Positions 1,995 to 33,563 of a stretch of 33,563 bases of DNA are shown here, piece after piece (the stretch's first letter is position 1; the number at the start of each line of letters is the position of its first letter). The notes under the pieces were generated by a model. The model did not search any database, was not told the origin of the DNA, and saw only the letters and a list, made by a program, of their open reading frames with translations. The stretch is from Acidobacteriota bacterium (lineage in GTDB: Bacteria > Actinomycetota > Acidimicrobiia > Acidimicrobiales > SHLQ01), in NCBI GenBank assembly GCA_022562835.1, contig JADFOM010000001.1, positions 1 through 33,563 of the forward strand. Reading direction: 5' to 3'. The translations under genes were made by a program, and so were the position numbers.

Positions 1995-2247
1995 CCGTTG
2001 CCGAGTTGCGGCTGTTGGGTGGGGGGCGTAGGGGCGACGTCGATTCCGGGCGGGCGGAGTCGGGTGGTTGGATCGATTGGCGCAGATTGCCCTGTCCAGC
2101 CTTGGCTGGCGGGTTAGAACCTTGCTGGCGGTTGACACGGATCAGCCGTTGGATTTCGAGCCAGGCGCGGCTCGGCGTGTTGCCGGTGAGGGCGTAGGGG
2201 TCGGCATGCAGACGTGTCAGATCGACGATACTGGTGGCTGCGCGGAC

Positions 2248-2680
2248 GTGGGCGACGACGAGATCAAGCTCGGGGACAACGCCCAGCGGGTGTTGAGGGC
2301 CCGGTATCTCAAGAAGGACGAATCCGGCCAGTGCGTCGAGACGCCGGCCGAGTTGTTCCGCAGGGTGGCCAAGTGCGTAGCCAAGGCGGAACGGCAGTAC
2401 AGCGGTAGCGAGGCGGCCCGCAGCGAGTGGGAGGATCGCTTCTATCGGCTGATGACCAGTCGTCGTTTCATGCCCAACAGTCCGACGTTGATGAACGCCG
2501 GTCGAGAGATGGGCATGCTCAGTGCATGTTTTGTGCTCCCCGTTGGAGACAGCATCGGGGAGATTTTCGATTCGATCAAACACACGGCCCTGATCCAGAA
2601 GGCGGGCGGTGGAACCGGATTCGCCTTCGACGAGCTACGCCCCACCGGCGACTATATCAGCAGCTCGGGCGGCACGACAT
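2248..2680 (+). pseudogene. nrdJ: Class II (adenosylcobalamin-dependent) ribonucleotide reductase NrdJ, 5' fragment only
   Basis: Translation LGDNAQRVLRARYLKKDESGQCVETPAELFRRVA...RFMPNSPTLMNAG...SACFVLPV.DSI..IF...ALIQKAGGGTGFAFDELRP.GDYISSSGGTT matches the NrdJ N-terminal region. Similarity stops after GGTT, where SGPVSF normally follows, and the frame runs into unrelated sequence until the stop at 2757. About 145 of the several hundred expected residues remain. Confidence 0.7.
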
Positions 2681-3074
2681 GGGGTGGACGCGGGGCAACC
2701 GCCAGGGTGGGGAGCCGAGCGAGCGCTGCATCGCGTTCGGCGTCGTCATCGCCGTAGAAGGCGGGGTCGTGAATCTGATGCCACTTGTCGGCGCCTAGTA
2801 CAAGTACCTCGAAGCCATCCGCGATGTCGACAAGCAACCGCGCCTCGGTCACCTGAACCTCGAGCCATGAACGATGCGACGCCTCCAGTTCGAGGACCGC
2901 GACCCGATCGTCGAGTGGCGACTGACAGTCGCCACTCTTGCCGAGGGGATCTGTCGAAAGGCTGAACACGACGACCCCGAGATCGTGAGAGCGCAGAGCG
3001 GCCTCACCGATCGCGAGGTGCGCGATGGTGGGCGGATCGAACGAGCCAGGAAAGACGCCACGACGTTGAGCCAC
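2652..3074 (-). CDS. Cytidylyltransferase-fold nucleotidyltransferase (NadD-like), probably 3'-truncated
   Basis: N-terminal GVFPGSFDPPTIAHL matches the (H/T)xGH nucleotidyltransferase motif. At 140 aa it is short for the family. Its last ~9 codons (VVPPELLI-stop) are the antisense of the nrdJ fragment, so the native C-terminus appears lost. Confidence 0.5.
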   Translation of the reverse strand: MAQRRGVFPGSFDPPTIAHLAIGEAALRSHDLGVVVFSLSTDPLGKSGDCQSPLDDRVAVLELEASHRSWLEVQVTEARLLVDIADGFEVLVLGADKWHQIHDPAFYGDDDAERDAALARLPTLAVAPRPPHVVPPELLI

Positions 3075-3331: not shown

Positions 3332-5068
3332 ATGAAGATTGACGGTGGCCGCGCCCTCATACGTTCACTCGAGGCCGAGGGCGTAGAGGTAATGTTTGGG
3401 CTTCCCGGCGGAGCGATTCTGCCCGTCTATGACCCGATCATCGACTCGTCTATCCGCCACATCCTCGTTCGCCACGAACAAGGCGCTGGACACATGGCCG
3501 AGGGTTATGCCCATGCAACCGGTCGCCCCGGTGTCGTGATGGTCACCTCAGGTCCGGCTGCGACCAATGTTGTGACACCACTCTGTGACGCCTATCTGGA
3601 TTCGGTCCCGCTCGTTTGCATTACCGGACAGGTTCCCTACGCGGCGATCGGCACCGACGCGTTTCAAGAATGTGACACGACCGGAATAACGATGTCGGTC
3701 ACCAAGCACAACTTTCTAGTTTCGGAGGCGGCCGACATCCCCCAGGTCATCCACGATGCGTTTCACATCGCGACGACCGGCCGACCCGGCCCCGTACTGG
3801 TCGACATCCCAAAGGATATTGTCGATCCGAACAATCCGAACTCGGCACTCGACTGGTACGAACCAACCGGTCACGCTCTGCCCGGGTACCACCCACAGCT
3901 AGACGGTGATCCGGCCGACGTTGCCGCGGCAGTCGATCTGTTGTTGGCGTCTGAGAGACCCGTTATCTACGCCGGGGGCGGCATCCTCAAGGCGCGCGCG
4001 GCGGAGTCGTTGCGTGAGTTTGCCGAGCTCACCAACATCCATGTCGTCACCACCCTGATGGCCCGGGGGGCGTTCCCCGACGACCATGCGTTGGCTCTCG
4101 GCATGCCTGGGATGCACGGCAACTACACAGCGGTTACCGCGATGCAGGAGGCCGACCTGTTGATCGCACTCGGCAGTCGATTCGATGATCGCGTGACCGG
4201 CAAGGTCGACGGGTTCGCGCCGGATGCCAAGATCATCCACGTCGATATCGACCCAGCAGAGCTCGGCAAGGTGCGTCTTGCGCAAGCCGCGATCACCGGC
4301 GATGCGAAACGAGTGATCGACCAGCTCATCGCAGAACTGCGCCGCCGCGGCGAGTCCGGAGCCGACACCAGCGCATGGAAGGCCAAGCTCAGTGGTTGGC
4401 AGGAGCGCTATCCGCTGACCTATGAACAGTCCGAACCCGGCGAGCTCCTCAAGCCGCAGTACGTCGTGGAACAGCTGCGTGACCATTCCCCCGAGGACAC
4501 GATCATGACGTCTGGGGTTGGTCAGCATCAGATGTTTGCGAGCCAGTATTGGACGTTCCGCCATCCCTACACCTGGGTCAATTCGGGTGGGTTGGGCACC
4601 ATGGGGTTCTCGATTCCTGCTGCGATCGGGGCGAAGGTCGGCATGCCGGATCGCACGGTCTGGTCAATCGACGGCGACGGGTGTTTCCAGATGACAGCCC
4701 AGGAGCTGGTGACAGCATCGATGGAGAAGATCCCCATCAAGGTCGCCTTGTTGAACAACGCCTACCTCGGGATGGTTCGTCAATGGCAGGAAATGTTCTA
4801 CGAGGAGCGCTTCAGCGAAGTGCACCTGAGCCACGACCTTCCTGACTATGTCGGTTGGGCGAAGTCGATGGGTTGTGAAGCTCTGCGCGTCGAATCGCCT
4901 GAAGAGGTCGCTCCGGCGATCGAAAAGGCGAACGACATCAACGACCGTCCCGTGGTCCTGGAGTTCCGCACCGACCCCCGCGAAAAAGTGTTCCCGATGG
5001 TTGCGTCGGGCCAAACCAACTCCGAGATCATGGTCCACCCCAGCCAGGACCAGCCGGGAGCATCGTGA
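3332..5068 (+). CDS. ilvB: Acetolactate synthase (acetohydroxyacid synthase) large subunit
   Basis: 578 aa; ThDP-enzyme motifs (HEQGAGHMAEGYA, GGLGTMGFSIPAAIGAK, IDGDGCFQM..QEL, NN..LGMVRQWQ). AGGAG lies upstream of the ATG. ilvN and ilvC follow. Confidence 0.95.
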   Translation: MKIDGGRALIRSLEAEGVEVMFGLPGGAILPVYDPIIDSSIRHILVRHEQGAGHMAEGYAHATGRPGVVMVTSGPAATNVVTPLCDAYLDSVPLVCITGQVPYAAIGTDAFQECDTTGITMSVTKHNFLVSEAADIPQVIHDAFHIATTGRPGPVLVDIPKDIVDPNNPNSALDWYEPTGHALPGYHPQLDGDPADVAAAVDLLLASERPVIYAGGGILKARAAESLREFAELTNIHVVTTLMARGAFPDDHALALGMPGMHGNYTAVTAMQEADLLIALGSRFDDRVTGKVDGFAPDAKIIHVDIDPAELGKVRLAQAAITGDAKRVIDQLIAELRRRGESGADTSAWKAKLSGWQERYPLTYEQSEPGELLKPQYVVEQLRDHSPEDTIMTSGVGQHQMFASQYWTFRHPYTWVNSGGLGTMGFSIPAAIGAKVGMPDRTVWSIDGDGCFQMTAQELVTASMEKIPIKVALLNNAYLGMVRQWQEMFYEERFSEVHLSHDLPDYVGWAKSMGCEALRVESPEEVAPAIEKANDINDRPVVLEFRTDPREKVFPMVASGQTNSEIMVHPSQDQPGAS

Positions 5069-14521: not shown

Positions 14522-14579
14522 CCCGGCCTGGTTGCCACTAATTCCTACATTTGAACTCGGAACATGTCGATGGGTGGTG

Positions 14580-16196
14580 ATGGACGAGAAGTACGCAAGC
14601 GTCGAATCGGGTTCGGTCAGCGGTGGACCGCCGGGTCGCGTGGTGGCAGTCATCGTCGCAGCCGTTGGAGTGGCGGTACTGGCGTTCATCGGCTTTCGGG
14701 TCACCGGTGCGGCTAGTGGTTCGGCGGCCGGCGCCGACACTTCGTCCGAAGCGGTTACCGGACTGATGGGAGCGTTGTCCAGCGAGAACGTTATCGAGAT
14801 CTTCGCGCTGCTCCCGCCGAGCGAGGTTGGTCATGTCGTCGAGTTGTATGTGCCCGGCGTTGAGCTCGCACAAGAGTCTGAAGTAATCGTCTCGGACGAT
14901 CCACTCGCCGGTATCGATATCACGATTGAGGGCACGGTCACCCGTGTCGAGGAGCTGCACTCGGACATTCACCGGGTGTATCTCAGCAACGATGCGATCG
15001 TGCGGGTGGTTACCGATCCCACGAAGATGGATCCAGCGCTGGCCGAACAGGCCGAAGCATCCGTTGAGACCATAACGGCGCAGGAGCTGCTGGAGGAATT
15101 CAACGATCGTGACGATCCCGACCCGTTGTCCGAACTATTTGTAGTTGCCGTGCGCGAACGCGGTCAGTGGTTCGCCAGCCCGCTCTACACGACGATGGAA
15201 TACCTCCGCGAGTACTACGACGTCGATGTTCCGGACTTCGCGGCTTCTCGCGAAGTCGTCAATGTTGGCGCCGAGAGCCCGGAAGGTGTTCTCGAACAGT
15301 TTCTCGAGCCGATCGACGAACTGGACGAAACCGACGTCATCGAAGGGCTCGACCAGGCGATCGCTGGTCTCGAGGAAGGATCGGAAGCGGACTATATGGC
15401 TGATGTCGACTGGGAAACGTCGCTCATCGCTCCCGACGAGATCGACGTGTTCTTGGACTATGCACCAGTGTTCGCAGCCATCACCGAGGAAATTCAGATG
15501 TCGACCGACGAGATATTCGGGCCGATGGAAGCGATAGAAGTCGGGGAGGCGATTCCAGAGATGGAGGCTACGACCGACTATCGCGAAGACTGGAATGCGA
15601 TTCCTGAAGCCCCTCCGCCACCGTATGACTGCCCAAATCTGACTGCCCCCGATGGAACACCAGCGTGCGATCCCTGGACGGTCCCCGCCATCGAGGATCC
15701 CTACTTCGATGACGACTCGTATTACGACGACTTCTATTACGAGGAACCGCTCACGTTGACCGAGCAGCTCGAGGAGATGCGCAACGCGTTCGAAGAAGCG
15801 GACTACAAGGGAAACCTTGATATTGAGACCGAGACCATGGTCGAGTCGATGAGCGACGATCGGGCCAGGGTGAGCGTGACTGCAGCGCAGCTACGCGGCG
15901 AGCTGAGCTGGCAGGATCCGGGCATGCCGCGCTCGAGTGTTGTGCTCGACGCTGAGATCTATGACGGGATATGCGGACGGTACTCGTTCGTACAGACCGA
16001 CGTCGTGGAGTACGAGGGGGCGCCGCCGGAATCGTTCACGGAGTCGGCCGACGAGTGTCTGGAGATCCCTGGCGATCGCCCCGCTGGAGCGTTCATCATC
16101 ACCCGCGAGATCGACGGTCAGTGGTACTTCAGCCCAATCGAAACTATTATCGAATACGCGCGCTTCGCCATCGAGATCGCTTCCGCCGAGGACTGA
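14580..16196 (+). CDS. Hypothetical membrane-anchored, highly acidic protein with an internal duplication
   Basis: N-terminal TM helix VVAVIVAAVGVAVLAFIGF, then a long D/E-rich region. The motif GQW(F/Y)xSP(L/I)xT(T/I)(M/I)EYxR occurs twice (DNA ~15140-15215 and ~16089-16170). ATG 14580 is chosen; in-frame GTGs at 14574 and 14577 are possible. Confidence 0.6.
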   Translation: MDEKYASVESGSVSGGPPGRVVAVIVAAVGVAVLAFIGFRVTGAASGSAAGADTSSEAVTGLMGALSSENVIEIFALLPPSEVGHVVELYVPGVELAQESEVIVSDDPLAGIDITIEGTVTRVEELHSDIHRVYLSNDAIVRVVTDPTKMDPALAEQAEASVETITAQELLEEFNDRDDPDPLSELFVVAVRERGQWFASPLYTTMEYLREYYDVDVPDFAASREVVNVGAESPEGVLEQFLEPIDELDETDVIEGLDQAIAGLEEGSEADYMADVDWETSLIAPDEIDVFLDYAPVFAAITEEIQMSTDEIFGPMEAIEVGEAIPEMEATTDYREDWNAIPEAPPPPYDCPNLTAPDGTPACDPWTVPAIEDPYFDDDSYYDDFYYEEPLTLTEQLEEMRNAFEEADYKGNLDIETETMVESMSDDRARVSVTAAQLRGELSWQDPGMPRSSVVLDAEIYDGICGRYSFVQTDVVEYEGAPPESFTESADECLEIPGDRPAGAFIITREIDGQWYFSPIETIIEYARFAIEIASAED

Positions 16197-16270
16197 CTCG
16201 TCCCGCCGAGGTCAATATTGCGATAGTTGAGCCAATCGGACAGTGGGCCGCTGAGACGCGATACTGGCCC

Positions 16271-16798
16271 ATGGACGATGCCACATCTCTCGCTGAGTTG
16301 ACCGTGATAGATGTCGACGGCAACAACGTTGAGTTGGGGTCGTTCTGCGGAAGACCGCTGCTGATCCAGATGTTGCGTTACTACGGTTGACTGCCCTGCA
16401 AGGACTACCTCACGCAGTTGCGGGAGGAACATCAGGCATTGGAGGAGTCGGGCGTTTCGGTCGTGGCCATCGGCGGATCTGCGCAAGATCAGGCCGCAGC
16501 GCTCCAACCCGACTACCCGTTCCCCTTGTTGTTGGATCCCGACCAGGTAGTGCGCCAAGCGGTTGGACTGGGCACGTTGAGCATCGGTCAAATGATCAAG
16601 CCGCGTAGCGCATGGCGTTACGTGCGATCGATTCGCAGTCGAGTCGCACCCGGCAAGATCACCGAGGACCGTGAGCAGGCACCGGGTGTGTTGCTGACGA
16701 ACGCGGTGCTGGAGGCGGAGTGGGTTTATCGCGGAACGGGCTTGGGTGACTATCCGTCGATGCAGACAGTTCGTGATCAGGTTGCCCACATGCGGTAG
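16271..16798 (+). CDS. Peroxiredoxin-like (AhpC/TSA, PRX_like2-type) thioredoxin-fold protein with in-frame TGA at 16388-16390; candidate selenoprotein (U-L-P-C)
   Basis: ORFs 15971..16390 and 16418..16798 share a frame and are separated only by this TGA. The joined translation is ...LTVIDVDGNNVELGSFCGRPLLIQMLRYYG-U-LPCKDYLTQLREEHQALEESGVSVVAIGGS...FPLLLDPD...APGVLLTN.... This follows the layout of CxxC Prx-like proteins, with the TGA at the first Cys position. ATG 16271 gives 175 aa. Confidence 0.6.
16408..16427 (+). ncRNA. Candidate bacterial SECIS-like hairpin
   Basis: CCUC-A-CGC-AGUU-GCG-G-GAGG: 7 bp with one A/G mismatch. The apical loop AGUU contains GU and begins 25 nt after the UGA. 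Folded by eye only. Confidence 0.3.
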
Positions 16799-17035: not shown

Positions 17036-17371
17036 ATGCTCGATTCGATGTACGCGCCATTGGTGGAGATGTCGACCGAATGGATGGGCGACGGGGCTTG
17101 TAGTGGCAAGAGCGACCTCTTCTTCGCTCCTTTCGCCGAACGACCAGAGGCTCGTGTCCGTCGCGAGAATCAAGCTCGCACCATTTGTGAGGAGTGCAGT
17201 GCGTTGGGCCAGTGCCGCACCTGGGCGCGAGAGAATCGGGAGCTTGGCTTCTGGGGCGGAGAGTCCGAGGCCGAGCGGGCGGCTGCCGGTTTCGCTCCGA
17301 CCACACCGATCATCGGTCGTCGTCGGGTAGCCGAGGAACGCGCCGCGAAGGCACTCGCCAAGGCTGTCTGA
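17036..17371 (+). CDS. WhiB-family (Wbl) Fe-S transcriptional regulator
   Basis: Four Cys in the pattern C-x28-C-x2-C-x5-C (GACSG...ICEECSALGQC), followed by the G(F)WGG turn (ELGFWGGES) and a basic tail. GGAGGAG lies 9 nt upstream of ATG 17036. An internal ATG at 17069 is possible. Confidence 0.8.
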   Translation: MLDSMYAPLVEMSTEWMGDGACSGKSDLFFAPFAERPEARVRRENQARTICEECSALGQCRTWARENRELGFWGGESEAERAAAGFAPTTPIIGRRRVAEERAAKALAKAV

Positions 17372-18979: not shown

Positions 18980-21309
18980 GGCGCATTCGGTGAGAGGCGC
19001 CCGGTCAACCATGGCACCGCGATAACACCGAGTGAGCCGATGGCTGCGCCCGTGAGCACTATCGTCCAGGCCGCGGCGGGTAACCTCTCCAGCTCGAAAT
19101 AGTCGCGAAGCATCGGGATCGACGCAACCGCCGCGTAGCTAGCTCCCATCGCGACCACGAGACCAACCTTCCAAGTACGCAGAGGTCGAGCAACGACGAT
19201 CAGAATTGTCAGTGCGATCACGAGGAGGCAGATCGTTGCAGCGGTCCGAGCCTCCTCGATGCTGTAGTCACCGCGGCGGATGATCTCGAAGACGGTGACC
19301 GCAGCGGTTCCGGCGCAAGCGCCTGCCGGCAGCGAAAACCAGAGCGTCCGAGAAAGGAATCCGGGCCTCACCAGCTCGCTGTCAGGCGCGAGCGCCAGGA
19401 AGAAGCCAGGGATGCCGATGCTGAACGTGCCAATGAGTGTGAGCTGGCGTGGTAGGAACGGGAACGGCGAACCGATGATCACGATAATCAGGGTTATGAG
19501 AACGGCGTAGGTGGCCTTCGAGATGAAGAGGTTGGCGACCCGTTCAACGTTGTTGATGACCCTGCGACCCTCGCTCAATACGCGTGGGAGCGTCGAGAAC
19601 TTGTTGTCCAACAACACGAGCTGTGCAACGGCGCGGGTGGCCGACGAGCCCGAACCCATGGCGATGCCCATATCACTGTCCTTGAGCGCGAGGACGTCGT
19701 TTACGCCATCGCCGGTCATTGCTACGATGCGTCCATCGCGTTGCAGCGAGCCGACCATCGATCGCTTCTGATGAGGTGTCACACGACCAAATACGACCTC
19801 GCGTCGGACGATCTCATCGAACTCCTCACCCTCATCTGGCAGGGTCGTGGCGTCGTATCCGACGTCCGCGCCGGCAATCCCTGCTCGCCGCGCCACCGCC
19901 GCGACGGTGTCGGGATGATCGCCCGAAATTACGCGCAAATCGACTCCCTCCGCCGCGAAGAAAGCGAAGATCTCCGCGGCGTCGGGCTTGATCGTGTCCT
20001 CGAGCAGCACAAAGGCGATCGGATCTCGTCTTTTTGACAACTGACTCGAGTCGGCCGATGTCTCGCCGACAGCGCGAGCCAACAGAAGCACCCTGCGGCC
20101 CTCGCGTGCGTGTTCGAGCATGCGCACACGTTCGCCGTCGTCGTTGTCGTCAAAGAGAATGTCGGGAGCGCCAAGGTAGAAGGTGCCATGCCCCTCGAAA
20201 CTCGCAGAAGCCCACTTGCGGGCAGAACTAAATGGCACGATCTCGGTCGGGACCCAGCCGGGATCAGCGCAGACAGAGGCCACCGCTGCAAGCGAAGCGT
20301 TTGGATTTTGGTCGGCCGCTGCCATTGCACCTAGCGCGGCGTGAACGGTGGTTTCACTCGTGTCGCGGAGCGGCTCGATCCCGCCGAGAGATATCTCGCC
20401 GGTCGTGATGGTGCCCGTCTTGTCGAGACAGAGCGTGTTGACACGCGCCAGAAGTTCGACCGTGGCAAGTTCCTTCGCGAGCGCCTGATGGCGGGCGAGG
20501 ACGATGACACCCGCGATAAAGGCCAAGCTGGTGAGTAGCACCAACCCATCGGGGACCATCGCCACGGTCGCGGCAACCATTCCTTGTAGCGCGTCTTGCC
20601 ACTCGTCTTGCACGTTGAGCAGGCGGATCAACAACAAGATCGATACGGGAGGGATTATCACCATCAGCCAACGCATTATGACGTTGACACCTTGACGCAG
20701 TTCAGAATCGGCGAGTTGAAAGCGTCGAGCCTCCTCGGCGAGCGTGCTCGCGTAACTCTCCGCGCCGATTCGTTGAGCGCGCACGTGGCCCGAACCTGCC
20801 GCGACGAAAGAGCCCGACAGAACCTGGTCGCCGACATCTTTGAGCACGGCCTCGGCCTCGCCGGTCAGCAGCGACTCGTCGATCTCGAGGCCGACACCAT
20901 CTACCACCTCTCCGTCGACGACGATCTGATCACCGGTCTCGATGCTCAGCAGATCGTCTGCTACGACCTCGCTCAGGGCGACCTCACTCTCGGCACCGTC
21001 GCGTAGAACCCGCGCCTTTGGTGCCGACAACACCGTGAGGTTGTGCAGCGTTTTGCGCGCCCTGAGCTCCTGGCTGATGCCGATGACGCTGTTGGAGATG
21101 ACGACACCTACAAAGAGTCCGTCCTCGGGGTATCCGGCGATCAGAATCAGGACGAACAGCGTCGACATGATCGCGTTGACCGGTGTGAAAACGTTGGCCC
21201 GCAGGATTTGAGGGAGGGTGCGCACGGGCGCGTCGGGTACGTTGTTGACGCGCCCGTCGGCGACCCGTTCGGCAACCTCCGCGGCGCTGAGGCCGGTGGC
21301 GAGGCTCAC
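18976..21309 (-). CDS. Cation-translocating P-type ATPase (no N-terminal metal-binding domain; CtpE-like / P2-like)
   Basis: LTGEAE actuator motif, phosphorylation site CLDKTGTITTGE, hinge MTGDGVNDVLALK and TM4 VPDGL. 777 aa. The GTG start overlaps the Nudix stop (GTGA). Confidence 0.9.
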   Translation of the reverse strand: MSLATGLSAAEVAERVADGRVNNVPDAPVRTLPQILRANVFTPVNAIMSTLFVLILIAGYPEDGLFVGVVISNSVIGISQELRARKTLHNLTVLSAPKARVLRDGAESEVALSEVVADDLLSIETGDQIVVDGEVVDGVGLEIDESLLTGEAEAVLKDVGDQVLSGSFVAAGSGHVRAQRIGAESYASTLAEEARRFQLADSELRQGVNVIMRWLMVIIPPVSILLLIRLLNVQDEWQDALQGMVAATVAMVPDGLVLLTSLAFIAGVIVLARHQALAKELATVELLARVNTLCLDKTGTITTGEISLGGIEPLRDTSETTVHAALGAMAAADQNPNASLAAVASVCADPGWVPTEIVPFSSARKWASASFEGHGTFYLGAPDILFDDNDDGERVRMLEHAREGRRVLLLARAVGETSADSSQLSKRRDPIAFVLLEDTIKPDAAEIFAFFAAEGVDLRVISGDHPDTVAAVARRAGIAGADVGYDATTLPDEGEEFDEIVRREVVFGRVTPHQKRSMVGSLQRDGRIVAMTGDGVNDVLALKDSDMGIAMGSGSSATRAVAQLVLLDNKFSTLPRVLSEGRRVINNVERVANLFISKATYAVLITLIIVIIGSPFPFLPRQLTLIGTFSIGIPGFFLALAPDSELVRPGFLSRTLWFSLPAGACAGTAAVTVFEIIRRGDYSIEEARTAATICLLVIALTILIVVARPLRTWKVGLVVAMGASYAAVASIPMLRDYFELERLPAAAWTIVLTGAAIGSLGVIAVPWLTGRLSPNAP

Positions 21310-30415: not shown

Positions 30416-30539
30416 TCTGCACGTCAATCGTCGATGACGAGAGGATGTGAGCCGCACACCTGAGACGTGGTCGTTGCATAGGCGTGGGCGGTTGCATCGT
30501 AAGGTCTACGGTGCGGGGATATCGCTGGAGAGCAGGGTC

Positions 30540-33500
30540 ATGACTGAAGCGGAAATTCCGGAGGGCACGGTCACAGTCCTGTTCACAGACCTCGTCGAAT
30601 CGACGCGTCTCAACCAGAACCTGGGTGACGACGAGGCCCGACAGGTCGGTCGCCAGGTCGAGGAGGTCACAAGACGACTGGTCGAAGCGAACCGGGGCGT
30701 GCTGATCAAGGAGATGGGCGATGGGCTCATGGCCGCCTTCGCGTCGGCCCGGCGGGCGGTGACTGCCAGTCGGGAGATCCAGATCGAGATGCGTCGACTT
30801 CAGCGCAACGGGCTCGGTGTAGCGGTCGAGATGCGCATAGGGCTACACACCGGTGAGGTGCTGAGCGAGGATGGCGACATCCACGGCGAGACGGTCATCA
30901 TCGCCAAGCGCATCGAGGGGCTGGCAGCACCTGGCGGAATTCTGGCTTCCGAAACGGTGTATGGGGTGCTGGGGACCGCTCGCGACGAACTCGTCGATCA
31001 AGGCTTGGCCGAGTTGAAGGGCATCGATGCGCAGTGGCGGGTATTTGTCGTGCCGCTGCCCGACGATGAGGCCGGTGGCAAGCTCGCCGACAATGAACCC
31101 ACGCCGTATGTGGGACGTATGACCGAGCGCGAACAGCTCAACACGATGCTCGATGCGGCGGCTGGTGGCCGAGGCGGCATGGTGCTCATCGGTGGACCAG
31201 CCGGCATGGGAAAGAGCCGCCTAGCCCGCGAAGCCTTTGCAACCGCAGAACGCCTCGGCATGACGGTGCTGAGCGGGAACTGCCTCGATATGGACTCTCC
31301 GCCCCCATACCAGCCGAGTATCGATCATCTCGAACAGGCTGCGCGGGCAGCGTCGCCCGAGGGTTTCCGAACCACACTTGGCGAGAACGCACCCGAGGTC
31401 GCAAAGCTGTTGCCGTCGCTTCGTCAGCGCTATGACGACATTCCTGAGTCACCCGACCTGACACCCGAACAGGAACGGCGCTACATGCTTCACGGCGTGG
31501 GTGAGTTCATCGAACGCGCCGCTCGAGCTCAACCACTGGTGTTGGTCTTCGAGGACCTTCACTGGGCCGACGAGTCGACATTGCTTCTCCTGCGACACCT
31601 CGGCGGCCGGCTGTCGGAGATCCCATGTTTCGTAATCGGTACCTACCGCGACGACGAGGTCGACACCAGCCGGCCGTTGAGCGCCGCGCTGGGGCCCTTG
31701 ACGCGCGACGTTGGCGCGGTCGACATACATCTGCGGCTGCTCACCGTCGACGAGGTCACGATCGTGCTGGCGGCACGCGCTGGGCTAGATCCGCCACAGG
31801 AACTAATCGACCTCGTGTTCGCAGAGACGCAGGGGAACCCGTTCTTTGTCGAGGAGTTGTTTCGACATTTACGAGACAGCGGAAAACTGTTCGACGACGA
31901 TGGCGCCTGGCGGGCGGGCTTCGAGATCGGCGAAACCGAGGTGCCGAGCGGGGTGCGATTGGTGATAGGCCGTCGCCTCGACCTGCTCGACGGCGAGCAT
32001 CGACGCCTTCTCGCGTCCGCCGCGTTGATAGGGCGCACGTTTTCCTTCGAACATCTCGCACGCTCGACTGCCGCCGACGAAGACGTTCTGTTCGACGCCC
32101 TCGAGATCGGCGAACGAAACAACCTCATTGAGGAGGCCCCAGCCGGTCGCGATGCCCGTTACATCTTCATGCATGAACAAATCCGCCAGACTCTCGTCGG
32201 AGAGCTGTCGCTCGCCCGCAGGCAAAGACTCCACCTCAAGATCGCCGATGCCCTGCAAAGCGATGCCGACATTCCGTGGATCGAGGTAGCGCATCACCTC
32301 TATCAGGCGGGCCCCGCCGCGCCAGCCGACCGGGCACTCGAGGCGATGATCGCGGCCGCAGAGCGGAACCTTGATGCGCTGGCTTTTGAGGACGCGTTGA
32401 AACACATCGACAATGCCGAGGCGTTCGTCGGTGATGATCAGCGGGTTGCATTCCGTCTGATGCAGGCTCGCGCACTTCGAGGCGCTGGGCGGGTCGACGA
32501 TGCACTAGCGGTCCTCGACGCCGAGTTGGCTCAGGCTGAAGAACTAGACGATCAGATAGCGTTGCGGCTTCAGCGGGTTCGGTTGTTGAACGACCAGTAC
32601 CGCGCTGGTGAAGGGCTCGATGACGTGGCGGCGCTTGTTGAGGCGGCAGCCGAAGCCGCTAACCCCGACCTCGAGATCGACGTGCAGCTCGCTCGGGGAC
32701 GGGCGCATTACATCCTTTCGCTCGACGAACCGTCGCACGCCGAACAATCGAGGGTCGCCTATGAAGCCGCGTATCAGGCGGCGAAGGCGCGTGGCGACAA
32801 GGCCAAGATGGCGGCGGCGTTGTTGCCGACGACCTGGTTCACCGACTACTGGGCCGAGTATGCGGACACCGCACAGGCCAACGTGGAAGAGTCACTGGCG
32901 TTGGCCAACGAGCTGGGTGATGAAGATCTAATCCTCGACGCGCTATCGGCGTCGATGCACAGCGGTGGGATGAAGTTCAACGTGGCGAGGTCCGAAGAAC
33001 TTCTCGCGCGACTGGAGGCCCGCCGCGACCCGGTGAAGCTCAACGCACATTGTTTCTGGATGATGTGGCAGTACAACGCGATCGGCCGGTTCGCCGACTC
33101 TGTCGCCGTTTGTGACCGAGGGATCGAACTCGCGGACCTGATCGGATCCGAACCGGTGCAATACGGGTCGATCAAGGCAATCGCGTTGACCGAACTCGGA
33201 CGGTTCGACGAGGTCGCGGGCGCCATCGACCAGGAGGTGACCGACGACAACCACCCGTTTGGTCAGGCCATGGCCTCGCTCGCCCGCTCGATCTACCTCA
33301 CCCGAATCGCCGCGTGGCAGTCGGCTGCTGAGAGTCTCATAGACACGATTGATCGAGCGGAGATGTTGTCGCGGGTGTGGATGCAGATGTGGGCGTCCAG
33401 TCTGTTGACCACGGTCGCTGCGCACCTGCGCACCGACGTCGATGACGGCGAAGCGTTGGCTGACGCGGTGGCGTCACGAGTTGATGCCGCGCCTTTTGGC

Positions 33501-33563
33501 CTGACCGCGGCTGAGGTCGCCCTGATCGAGCAGCGCCCGGCCGACGCAGTCGAGCTCCTGTCG
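30540..33563 (+). CDS. Class III adenylate/guanylate cyclase domain + AAA (STAND, AAA_16-type) ATPase + TPR-like region; 3' end outside the window
   Basis: My own translation of the open frame from ATG 30540 gives 1008 codons with no stop to the window edge. Cyclase core: VTVLFTDLVESTRL...KEMGDGLMAAF...GLHTGEV...GD.HGETV.IAKRI. P-loop: LIGGPAGMGKSRLA. Walker B-like: LVLVFEDLHWADESTL. A long helical repeat region follows. It is absent from the ORF track because no stop is reached. Confidence 0.85.
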   Translation, partial: MTEAEIPEGTVTVLFTDLVESTRLNQNLGDDEARQVGRQVEEVTRRLVEANRGVLIKEMGDGLMAAFASARRAVTASREIQIEMRRLQRNGLGVAVEMRIGLHTGEVLSEDGDIHGETVIIAKRIEGLAAPGGILASETVYGVLGTARDELVDQGLAELKGIDAQWRVFVVPLPDDEAGGKLADNEPTPYVGRMTEREQLNTMLDAAAGGRGGMVLIGGPAGMGKSRLAREAFATAERLGMTVLSGNCLDMDSPPPYQPSIDHLEQAARAASPEGFRTTLGENAPEVAKLLPSLRQRYDDIPESPDLTPEQERRYMLHGVGEFIERAARAQPLVLVFEDLHWADESTLLLLRHLGGRLSEIPCFVIGTYRDDEVDTSRPLSAALGPLTRDVGAVDIHLRLLTVDEVTIVLAARAGLDPPQELIDLVFAETQGNPFFVEELFRHLRDSGKLFDDDGAWRAGFEIGETEVPSGVRLVIGRRLDLLDGEHRRLLASAALIGRTFSFEHLARSTAADEDVLFDALEIGERNNLIEEAPAGRDARYIFMHEQIRQTLVGELSLARRQRLHLKIADALQSDADIPWIEVAHHLYQAGPAAPADRALEAMIAAAERNLDALAFEDALKHIDNAEAFVGDDQRVAFRLMQARALRGAGRVDDALAVLDAELAQAEELDDQIALRLQRVRLLNDQYRAGEGLDDVAALVEAAAEAANPDLEIDVQLARGRAHYILSLDEPSHAEQSRVAYEAAYQAAKARGDKAKMAAALLPTTWFTDYWAEYADTAQANVEESLALANELGDEDLILDALSASMHSGGMKFNVARSEELLARLEARRDPVKLNAHCFWMMWQYNAIGRFADSVAVCDRGIELADLIGSEPVQYGSIKAIALTELGRFDEVAGAIDQEVTDDNHPFGQAMASLARSIYLTRIAAWQSAAESLIDTIDRAEMLSRVWMQMWASSLLTTVAAHLRTDVDDGEALADAVASRVDAAPFGLTAAEVALIEQRPADAVELLS

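Follow-up and report, generated by a model that had tools for sequence, protein, structure and literature searches.

Does the TGA at 16388-16390 stop translation, or does it specify selenocysteine (Sec, U) within a longer reading frame? The question is raised by a gene on the forward strand of the window (the whole stretch of 33,563 nucleotides analysed here), which an earlier note, made from the DNA letters alone, had put forward as an unannotated candidate selenoprotein. That proposal is supported by three lines of comparison, namely a TGA conserved at a Cys position, selection on both sides of it and a covarying hairpin behind it. We put the probability at close to nine in ten that 16271-16798 is a selenoprotein gene, its product being a SelL-related, Prx-like thioredoxin-fold protein with a predicted Sec40-Leu-Pro-Cys43 active site.

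Reading frame and gene limits

Read through the TGA, the locus is a single frame of 175 codons of which that triplet is the only interruption: an ATG at 16271 opens 39 sense codons (MDDATS...LLIQMLRYYG), the TGA follows, and CTG CCC TGC (L-P-C) and 132 further sense codons lead to a TAG stop at 16796-16798. The earlier note had described a frame broken at this one TGA, with a 175-aa product on read-through and a redox motif G-[TGA]-L-P-C, and re-translation matched it exactly, CTG CCC TGC standing directly after the TGA. The N terminus MDDATS is shared with the product of L001, one of the related loci, which are numbered here with an L. The list of open reading frames cuts the gene in two (15971..16390 and 16418..16798), and an exact sequence look-up showed that GenBank keeps its C-terminal 126 aa only (Table 1). 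On the minus strand, the overlapping frame that had been set aside as a shadow is indeed present and has no Pfam match. At least five other genes of the window (ilvN, ilvC, and those for an ALDH, a thiolase and an ATPase) end in TGA as their normal stop, and there is therefore no global reassignment of the code; when the coding-like frames of the window were scanned for further in-frame TGAs in a Cys-motif context, no second selenoprotein candidate emerged.

Table 1 Features of the locus and of related loci (window positions unless a related locus is named)
Feature	Position	Strand	Evidence
Probable complete selenoprotein gene, Sec at codon 40, with TAG	16271..16798	+	Frame, homologues, dN/dS
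UGA predicted to be read as Sec (U40), first position of U-L-P-C	16388..16390	+	Alignment with homologue Cys
TGC for Cys43, putative resolving residue of UxxC	16397..16399	+	Cys in all lineages except L001/L002
Putative bacterial SECIS-type hairpin, 8-bp stem, AGUU loop at 16416-16419	16408..16427	+	Fold and covariation
GenBank-annotated part, 'AhpC/TSA family protein' MCH7787817.1, 126 aa, TTG start within the SECIS loop	16418..16798	+	Exact sequence look-up
Antisense shadow frame, no gene	16118..16789	-	No Pfam match; homology and selection all on the + strand
WhiB-family gene, downstream	17036..17371	+ (same strand)	Downstream in L001 too
Upstream Bcp/PrxQ gene, putative Sec type	L008:402-869; L017:6912-7382; L019:6948-7418; L020:2044-2514; L007:1155-1625	Same strand as the SelL-like gene	

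Conservation of the UGA

Two protein-collection searches returned 122 full-length homologues, mostly from Actinomycetota, every one of them a continuous polypeptide, and in all 122 the aligned site is the first Cys of an RY[YF]G-C-[MLA]-P-C motif. In ResA, too, the residue opposite the TGA is the first Cys of the CxxC. Ten protein-collection matches are truncated proteins that start just past the aligned Cys site; in the DNA of these, and in that of the matches from a genome scan and a metagenome scan, an in-frame TGA occupies the same codon in every case. The peptide patterns of the two scans ended before the TGA or began after it and did not require a TGA. Among the GTDB representatives of the genome collection, a set that does not include the window's own genome, the scan found one locus only, L007.

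The TGA is kept in all ten lineages of the Sec form, at 33-97% amino-acid identity to the window protein (97% in L006, 75% in L001/L002 and 33% in the most distant). These lineages are the window with L006, L001/L002, L003-5, L007/L017/L019/L020 (four Acidimicrobiales MAGs), L008, L009, L010, L011, L016 and L021. They were drawn from independent JGI, ENA and NCBI assemblies, metagenomes and MAGs, and the recurrence of the TGA across such sources means that it is no read error. Homologues thus carry either Cys (122 full-length proteins) or TGA (ten lineages) at the aligned position, the distribution by which the earlier note had wished its proposal to be judged. The P-C that follows U is invariant across lineages, except that U replaces C in L001/L002. 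In a neighbour-joining tree nine of the ten Sec forms fall into one clade, with 35% bootstrap support only, and L011 stands apart; midpoint rooting was uninformative as to a single origin of the Sec forms, and one or two conversions from Cys to Sec are both possible.

The GenBank truncation of the gene to its last 126 codons recurs in every related MAG, so that the redox gene content of these Acidimicrobiales would be under-called; annotation tools that take selenoproteins into account could be trained or benchmarked cleanly on this locus.

The downstream hairpin

A small hairpin with a GU-containing loop, starting 18 nt past the UGA, had been suggested from the window alone and was confirmed at 16408-16427. 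It spans +21 to +40 from the U of the UGA and consists of a 5' arm CCUCACGC, the loop AGUU and a 3' arm GCGGGAGG; in the window copy the stem has a single A.G mismatch. A 66-nt stretch folded alone is unremarkable against shuffles (z = -1.26), so that it is the comparison of lineages which carries the case for the hairpin.

Across all ten Sec lineages the hairpin stands in the same register and its AGUU loop is invariant. Paired cells amount to 87.5% over these lineages, as against at most 57.5% with slid 3' partners; three pairs change on both sides, and the observed covariation score was reached by none of 500 shuffles. Stem pair 25:36 is A-U in three lineages, G-C in four and G-U in two, while pair 27:34 is G-C, A-U or U-A and pair 21:40 is C-G or G-C, depending on the lineage. 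The hairpin overlaps the conserved codons L-[TA]-Q-L-x-[ED], and part of its sequence conservation is therefore at the protein level. Pair 25:36 couples the first base of a Thr/Ala codon to the third base of an Arg/Cys/Ser/His codon, a coupling that seems hard to explain by protein constraint.

The published bSECIS model describes a loop of 3-9 nt with G among its first two positions followed by G or U, a stem of 4-16 bp, a spacing of 16-37 nt and an energy of -7.5 kcal/mol or lower (PMC13188914). The hairpin agrees with this model throughout, having a loop of 4 nt (A-G-U-U), a stem of 8 bp, a spacing of 25 nt from UGA to loop and a local fold energy of -10.1 kcal/mol, and the compensatory changes in ten lineages go with this agreement. 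Two of the only three Cys-form genes examined as negative controls are without the hairpin. The third, the Cys form at L014:96-680 (RYYGCMPC), has a hairpin as far from its Cys codon as the SECIS is from the UGA in Sec forms, but one of unrelated sequence, CUGCUCG-CACU-CGAGGAGCAG; this may be chance or a relic. Rfam, applied to the window at gathering thresholds, returned neither a SECIS family nor any other RNA.

Evidence on Sec decoding and neighbouring candidates

Neither the 33.6-kb window contig nor the flanks of related loci, about 165 kb in all, were found to hold a gene for tRNA-Sec, selA, selB or selD. The E. coli proteins SelA, SelB and SelD, compared by tblastn with the window and these flanks (198 kb together), gave noise only (E of at least 0.4), and ARAGORN found no tRNA, tRNA-Sec included, on the window. 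This absence favours a reading in which the UGA is recoded without selenium, either by hairpin-driven insertion of Cys, through a Cys-charged tRNA-Sec-like tRNA and a SelB-like factor, or by near-cognate read-through with Trp; SelB-like systems that insert Cys are known from some bacteria. We consider such recoding very improbable. The hairpin fits the standard bSECIS model, and on related contigs a TGA stands in place of the catalytic Cys codon of a peroxiredoxin (TxxU) and of a PrdB/GrdB-like protein (UxxC). An enzyme with Trp in place of its catalytic Cys would be dead, which does not go with the purifying selection on the gene. Furthermore, the class Acidimicrobiia includes another order, Actinomarinales, all members of which are reported to have selA, selB, selC and selD (bioRxiv 10.64898/2026.04.03.716425).

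The related contigs merit description, as they bear on whether Sec is used in this lineage at all. In the L007/L008/L017 lineage, a Bcp/PrxQ-type peroxiredoxin gene lies directly upstream on the same strand with a TGA at the codon for its peroxidatic Cys (TPG-U-T); the two halves of this gene flank positions 41-43 of the Pfam profile, and it has a strong downstream hairpin of its own of about -23 kcal/mol, so that two putative selenoprotein genes stand side by side. The L007 copy contains an extra TGA (L007:1242) at a Trp codon that is TGG in L017 and L008, probably an assembly error or a strain defect. On L016, a GRDB/PrdB-like gene (L016:18828-19613; PF07355, profile positions 217-344 of 347) has a TGA at 19332-19334 in the context LLVPV-U-PVCH and is a candidate UxxC selenoprotein gene; the contig also carries a SelL-like gene of the U-M-P-C type. 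Both Prx and PrdB/GrdB are classic selenoprotein families (PMC2398784, PMC9312934), and these neighbouring genes lend good, though indirect, support to Sec decoding in the Acidimicrobiales-like lineage. On L003, a DUF3179 gene (L003:1-1223) lies 7 kb from the Sec gene and is called as one uninterrupted product; DUF3179 is listed among the families with UxxC/T selenoprotein members (PMC9312934). The use of Sec by Acidimicrobiales is barely documented in the searchable literature, and the present locus would add evidence for it in their oxidative-stress or thiol-redox enzymes.

Selection on both sides of the UGA

Both halves of the Sec-form gene are under purifying selection. Between the window gene and L001, dN/dS is 0.17 over the whole gene, 0.17 in the 39 N-terminal codons (dS 0.68) and 0.18 in the C-terminal part (dS 0.98), and between L007 and L008 it is 0.23 upstream and 0.25 downstream of the UGA.

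These figures bear on a second alternative, in which the UGA terminates and a separate C-terminal protein of 126 aa, translated from the TTG at 16418 with or without a 39-aa peptide upstream, is functional. Gene callers do find a start past the TGA in every lineage, either the TTG of the loop or an ATG right after the TGA (U-M-P-C). However, the TTG is invariant because it forms part of the CAGUUG loop and closing pair, and the nine codons from the UGA to the annotated TTG are conserved in frame, with no non-synonymous change from L001 at dS 0.9. A product of the downstream fragment would lack three of the fold's beta strands as well as its first active-site residue. Each of the 122 Cys homologues is, moreover, a single polypeptide, and neither of the findings which the earlier note had named as damaging here, normally separate halves or an unconserved downstream half, was encountered. 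We regard a split gene as very improbable.

A pseudogene or assembly error, that is, a TGC-to-TGA nonsense change or a miscalled base in an ordinary CxxC Prx-like gene, has next to no chance of being correct: TGA is one base from TGC, only the downstream fragment is annotated in GenBank and a second gene of the contig is degraded, a fragment at 2068-2757 of the large subunit of ribonucleotide reductase (RNR), yet the same TGA stands in ten lineages down to 33% identity, in independent assemblies whose divergence excludes chimeric copies of one sequence, dN/dS is near 0.2 on both sides at dS of 0.7-1.0 with no other stop or frameshift, and a covarying hairpin lies at SECIS distance.

A variant with two UGAs

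L001 and L002, contigs of two different JGI samples that differ at a few bases, contain two in-frame TGAs (L001:468-479 and L002:826-837) in a G-U-L-P-U-K motif, the second at the codon for Cys43. The two UGAs are nine bases apart and lie 25 and 16 nt from the loop of a single hairpin, both within the accepted SECIS window. The resulting UxxU motif would be a potential diselenide. We tentatively suggest, as an idea with somewhat less than even odds, that in the Acidimicrobiales SelL-like clade one 8-bp AGUU SECIS decodes either one or two UGAs to give a selenenylsulfide or a diselenide pair, with a Sec-PrxQ module in some members. If this is true, the clade would be a tractable natural system in which to approach the purpose of a diselenide centre and the minimal distance for decoding between UGA and bSECIS. 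Work on Sec/Cys exchange and diselenide chemistry would also profit from having one small protein in matched UxxC, UxxU and CxxC forms, together with a very simple SECIS.

Protein family and predicted fold

With the TGA translated as Cys, the product matches the Pfam families AhpC-TSA (PF00578; E = 6e-11, 42.7 bits where the cut-off is 26), AhpC-TSA_2 and Redoxin, exceeding the gathering score of each; the comparison with the AhpC/TSA profile, U being replaced by C, had been proposed in the earlier note. The best curated family is NCBIfam NF040769, 'SelL-related redox protein', which the window protein matches over its full length at 88 bits (E = 4e-25). Three clade members score 88.4, 96.2 and 105.7 bits (E = 4e-25 to 2e-30) over positions 4-172 of the 173 in the profile, and none of the three reaches the curated cut-off of 120 bits. 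By NCBI's rule, then, the protein scores as a relative and not as a member of NF040769.

Among solved structures, ResA-type thiol-disulfide oxidoreductases come nearest in sequence (E = 7e-5), their CxxC aligning with U40-C43, and the next is human prostamide/prostaglandin F synthase (PGFS, PRXL2B). An AlphaFold model (pLDDT 83) of P0005, a Cys homologue with 40% identity, shows a thioredoxin fold in which Cys44 stands directly before a helix at 45-56, and the Foldseek neighbours of the model are ResA (E about 1e-9), Bcp/PrxQ and human PGFS/PRXL2B. By analogy with this homologue, the window protein is predicted to have a thioredoxin fold with its first redox residue at the N terminus of helix alpha-1, and it contains an extra helical insert at residues about 105-135.

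The peroxiredoxin motif P-x-x-x-T/S-x-x-C is absent: the corresponding residues are L-R-Y-Y-G-U-L-P-C, with no Thr/Ser three residues before U, and the protein is therefore not a peroxiredoxin proper. The earlier description as a 'Prx-like thioredoxin-fold' protein stands as regards the thioredoxin fold and the AhpC-TSA match, but the Prx Thr is missing and the site is of the CxxC type related to SelL/PRXL2 and ResA. No signal peptide or anchor segment was found in the protein, and this, together with the missing Thr of the T-x-x-C motif, leads us to read it as a putative cytoplasmic selenol/thiol oxidoreductase.

Genomic context of the window

The window is one complete contig of an NCBI MAG that is labelled 'Acidobacteria bacterium', whereas the contig has Acidimicrobiales-like content. 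Its IlvC is 80-83% identical to many proteins from Acidimicrobiales/Acidimicrobiia, and the order ALDH ... SelL-like gene ... P-type ATPase-NUDIX is common to the window and to contigs of Acidimicrobiales MAGs. Because of the WhiB gene, the IlvC identity and this synteny the Acidobacteria label looks wrong, and the MAG has likely been mislabelled or mis-binned. A near-complete genome of a close relative is available in L015 (ENA ERZ25072999 ctg322049_50x_c, 4.45 Mb), with an IlvC 90% identical to that of the window; the two are syntenic between ilvB and the gene for the thiolase, a stretch interrupted by a DUF87/MFS insertion, and the 10-kb flank covered on L015 ends short of the place of the SelL-like gene.

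The remainder of the window consists of ordinary chromosomal genes, including cmk, ilvBNC and genes for a sulfhydrylase, a thiolase, an ALDH and an enoyl-CoA hydratase. The 229-aa open reading frame at 2068-2757 (+) matches the N-terminal all-alpha domain of the RNR large subunit but, of the 523 positions of the barrel domain, only the first 55; it looks like a truncated RNR remnant, because the barrel match ends at 55/523 and ilvB starts at 3332. At 30438-33563 (+), a frame of at least 1042 codons, missing from the list of open reading frames because it runs off the contig end, has an adenylate/guanylate cyclase domain followed by AAA_16, a predicted layout typical of a large actinobacterial signalling/regulator protein. 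Just upstream of the SelL-like gene, 14532-16196 (+) encodes a very acidic protein of 554 aa that has a hydrophobic segment near its N terminus and matches no Pfam family. The gene sits where L017-type loci have the Sec-peroxiredoxin, and part of it is also found upstream in L001, L002 and L006.

Proposed mechanism

We tentatively propose the following mechanism. The UGA at 16388 would not be read as a stop, since the hairpin at 16408-16427 would act as a bacterial SECIS and recruit SelB.GTP.Sec-tRNA(Sec) to the ribosome, upon which Sec is inserted and translation proceeds to the TAG at 16796. Sec40 would then stand where the first helix begins, in the place that the attacking Cys takes in a CxxC protein, and from there it could attack an oxidised substrate such as a disulfide, a sulfenate or a peroxide. 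Cys43 would resolve the adduct as a selenenylsulfide, to be recycled by a cellular reductant. The dependence on SelB and tRNA-Sec, the incorporation of selenium and the nature of the substrate are all predictions.

Relatives place the gene directly after that for the Sec-containing Bcp/PrxQ-type peroxiredoxin, and our best guess is therefore that the SelL-like protein may serve as reductant or partner of Sec Bcp/PrxQ in the detoxification of peroxide. In the window itself no peroxiredoxin gene adjoins 16271-16798.

Comparison with known systems

Perhaps the closest precedent is the class of UxxC/UxxU Prx-like thiol:disulfide oxidoreductases (PF00578), which have been predicted as bacterial selenoproteins since the mid-2000s (PMC9312934, PMC13188914). 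The window protein resembles this class (type WP_010940744.1; GOS 'Prx-like 1') in its PF00578 domain, in having Sec first in a UxxC at the position of the CxxC, in the existence of UxxU variants and in a bSECIS that lies inside the coding region. It differs in its motif, RYYG-U-[LIMA]-P-C here against the commoner FYRGxW-U-PxC there. Identity to the one comparable published sequence, the GOS 'Prx-like 1' read JCVI_READ_1095515484943 (...HRHLGULPCRRHVLQLQ...), is low (25% over 153 residues, E = 8e-12, from a single read), and the present clade was seen only in Acidimicrobiales-like actinobacteria.

With SelL, NF040769 and PRXL2 (FAM213, PGFS) the protein shares the AhpC-TSA_2 domain and a CxxC-type site, which aligns with C44/C47 of human PGFS. 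SelL, which Shchedrina et al. are said to have described in PNAS in 2007, is reportedly a UxxU selenoprotein; the window protein, by contrast, has UxxC. The UxxU form of L001/L002 presumably mirrors the defining motif of SelL, a single SECIS being in range of both UGAs. SelL, after which the best NCBIfam match is named, was called 'a Prx-like protein' in the GOS selenoproteome paper. ResA/TlpA/DsbE proteins have the aligned CxxC and are the closest solved structures by sequence and fold; however, ResA/TlpA are membrane-anchored, extracytoplasmic and Cys-only, whereas the window protein has neither signal nor anchor and carries the extra helical insert.

As in the SECIS elements of E. coli fdhF and fdnG, the hairpin lies just downstream of the UGA, within the open reading frame, and has adjacent G and U in a small apical loop. 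Unlike these, it has no bulged U, being a plain stem of 8 bp capped by an AGUU tetraloop, and its distance of 25 nt from UGA to loop is, we assume, longer than that of fdhF. The finding leaves the knowledge of how selenoproteins are made unchanged, and the RYYG-U-xPC proteins are not a new kind of selenoprotein; they are a distinct, unannotated clade in Acidimicrobiales-like bacteria within the known UxxC/UxxU class.
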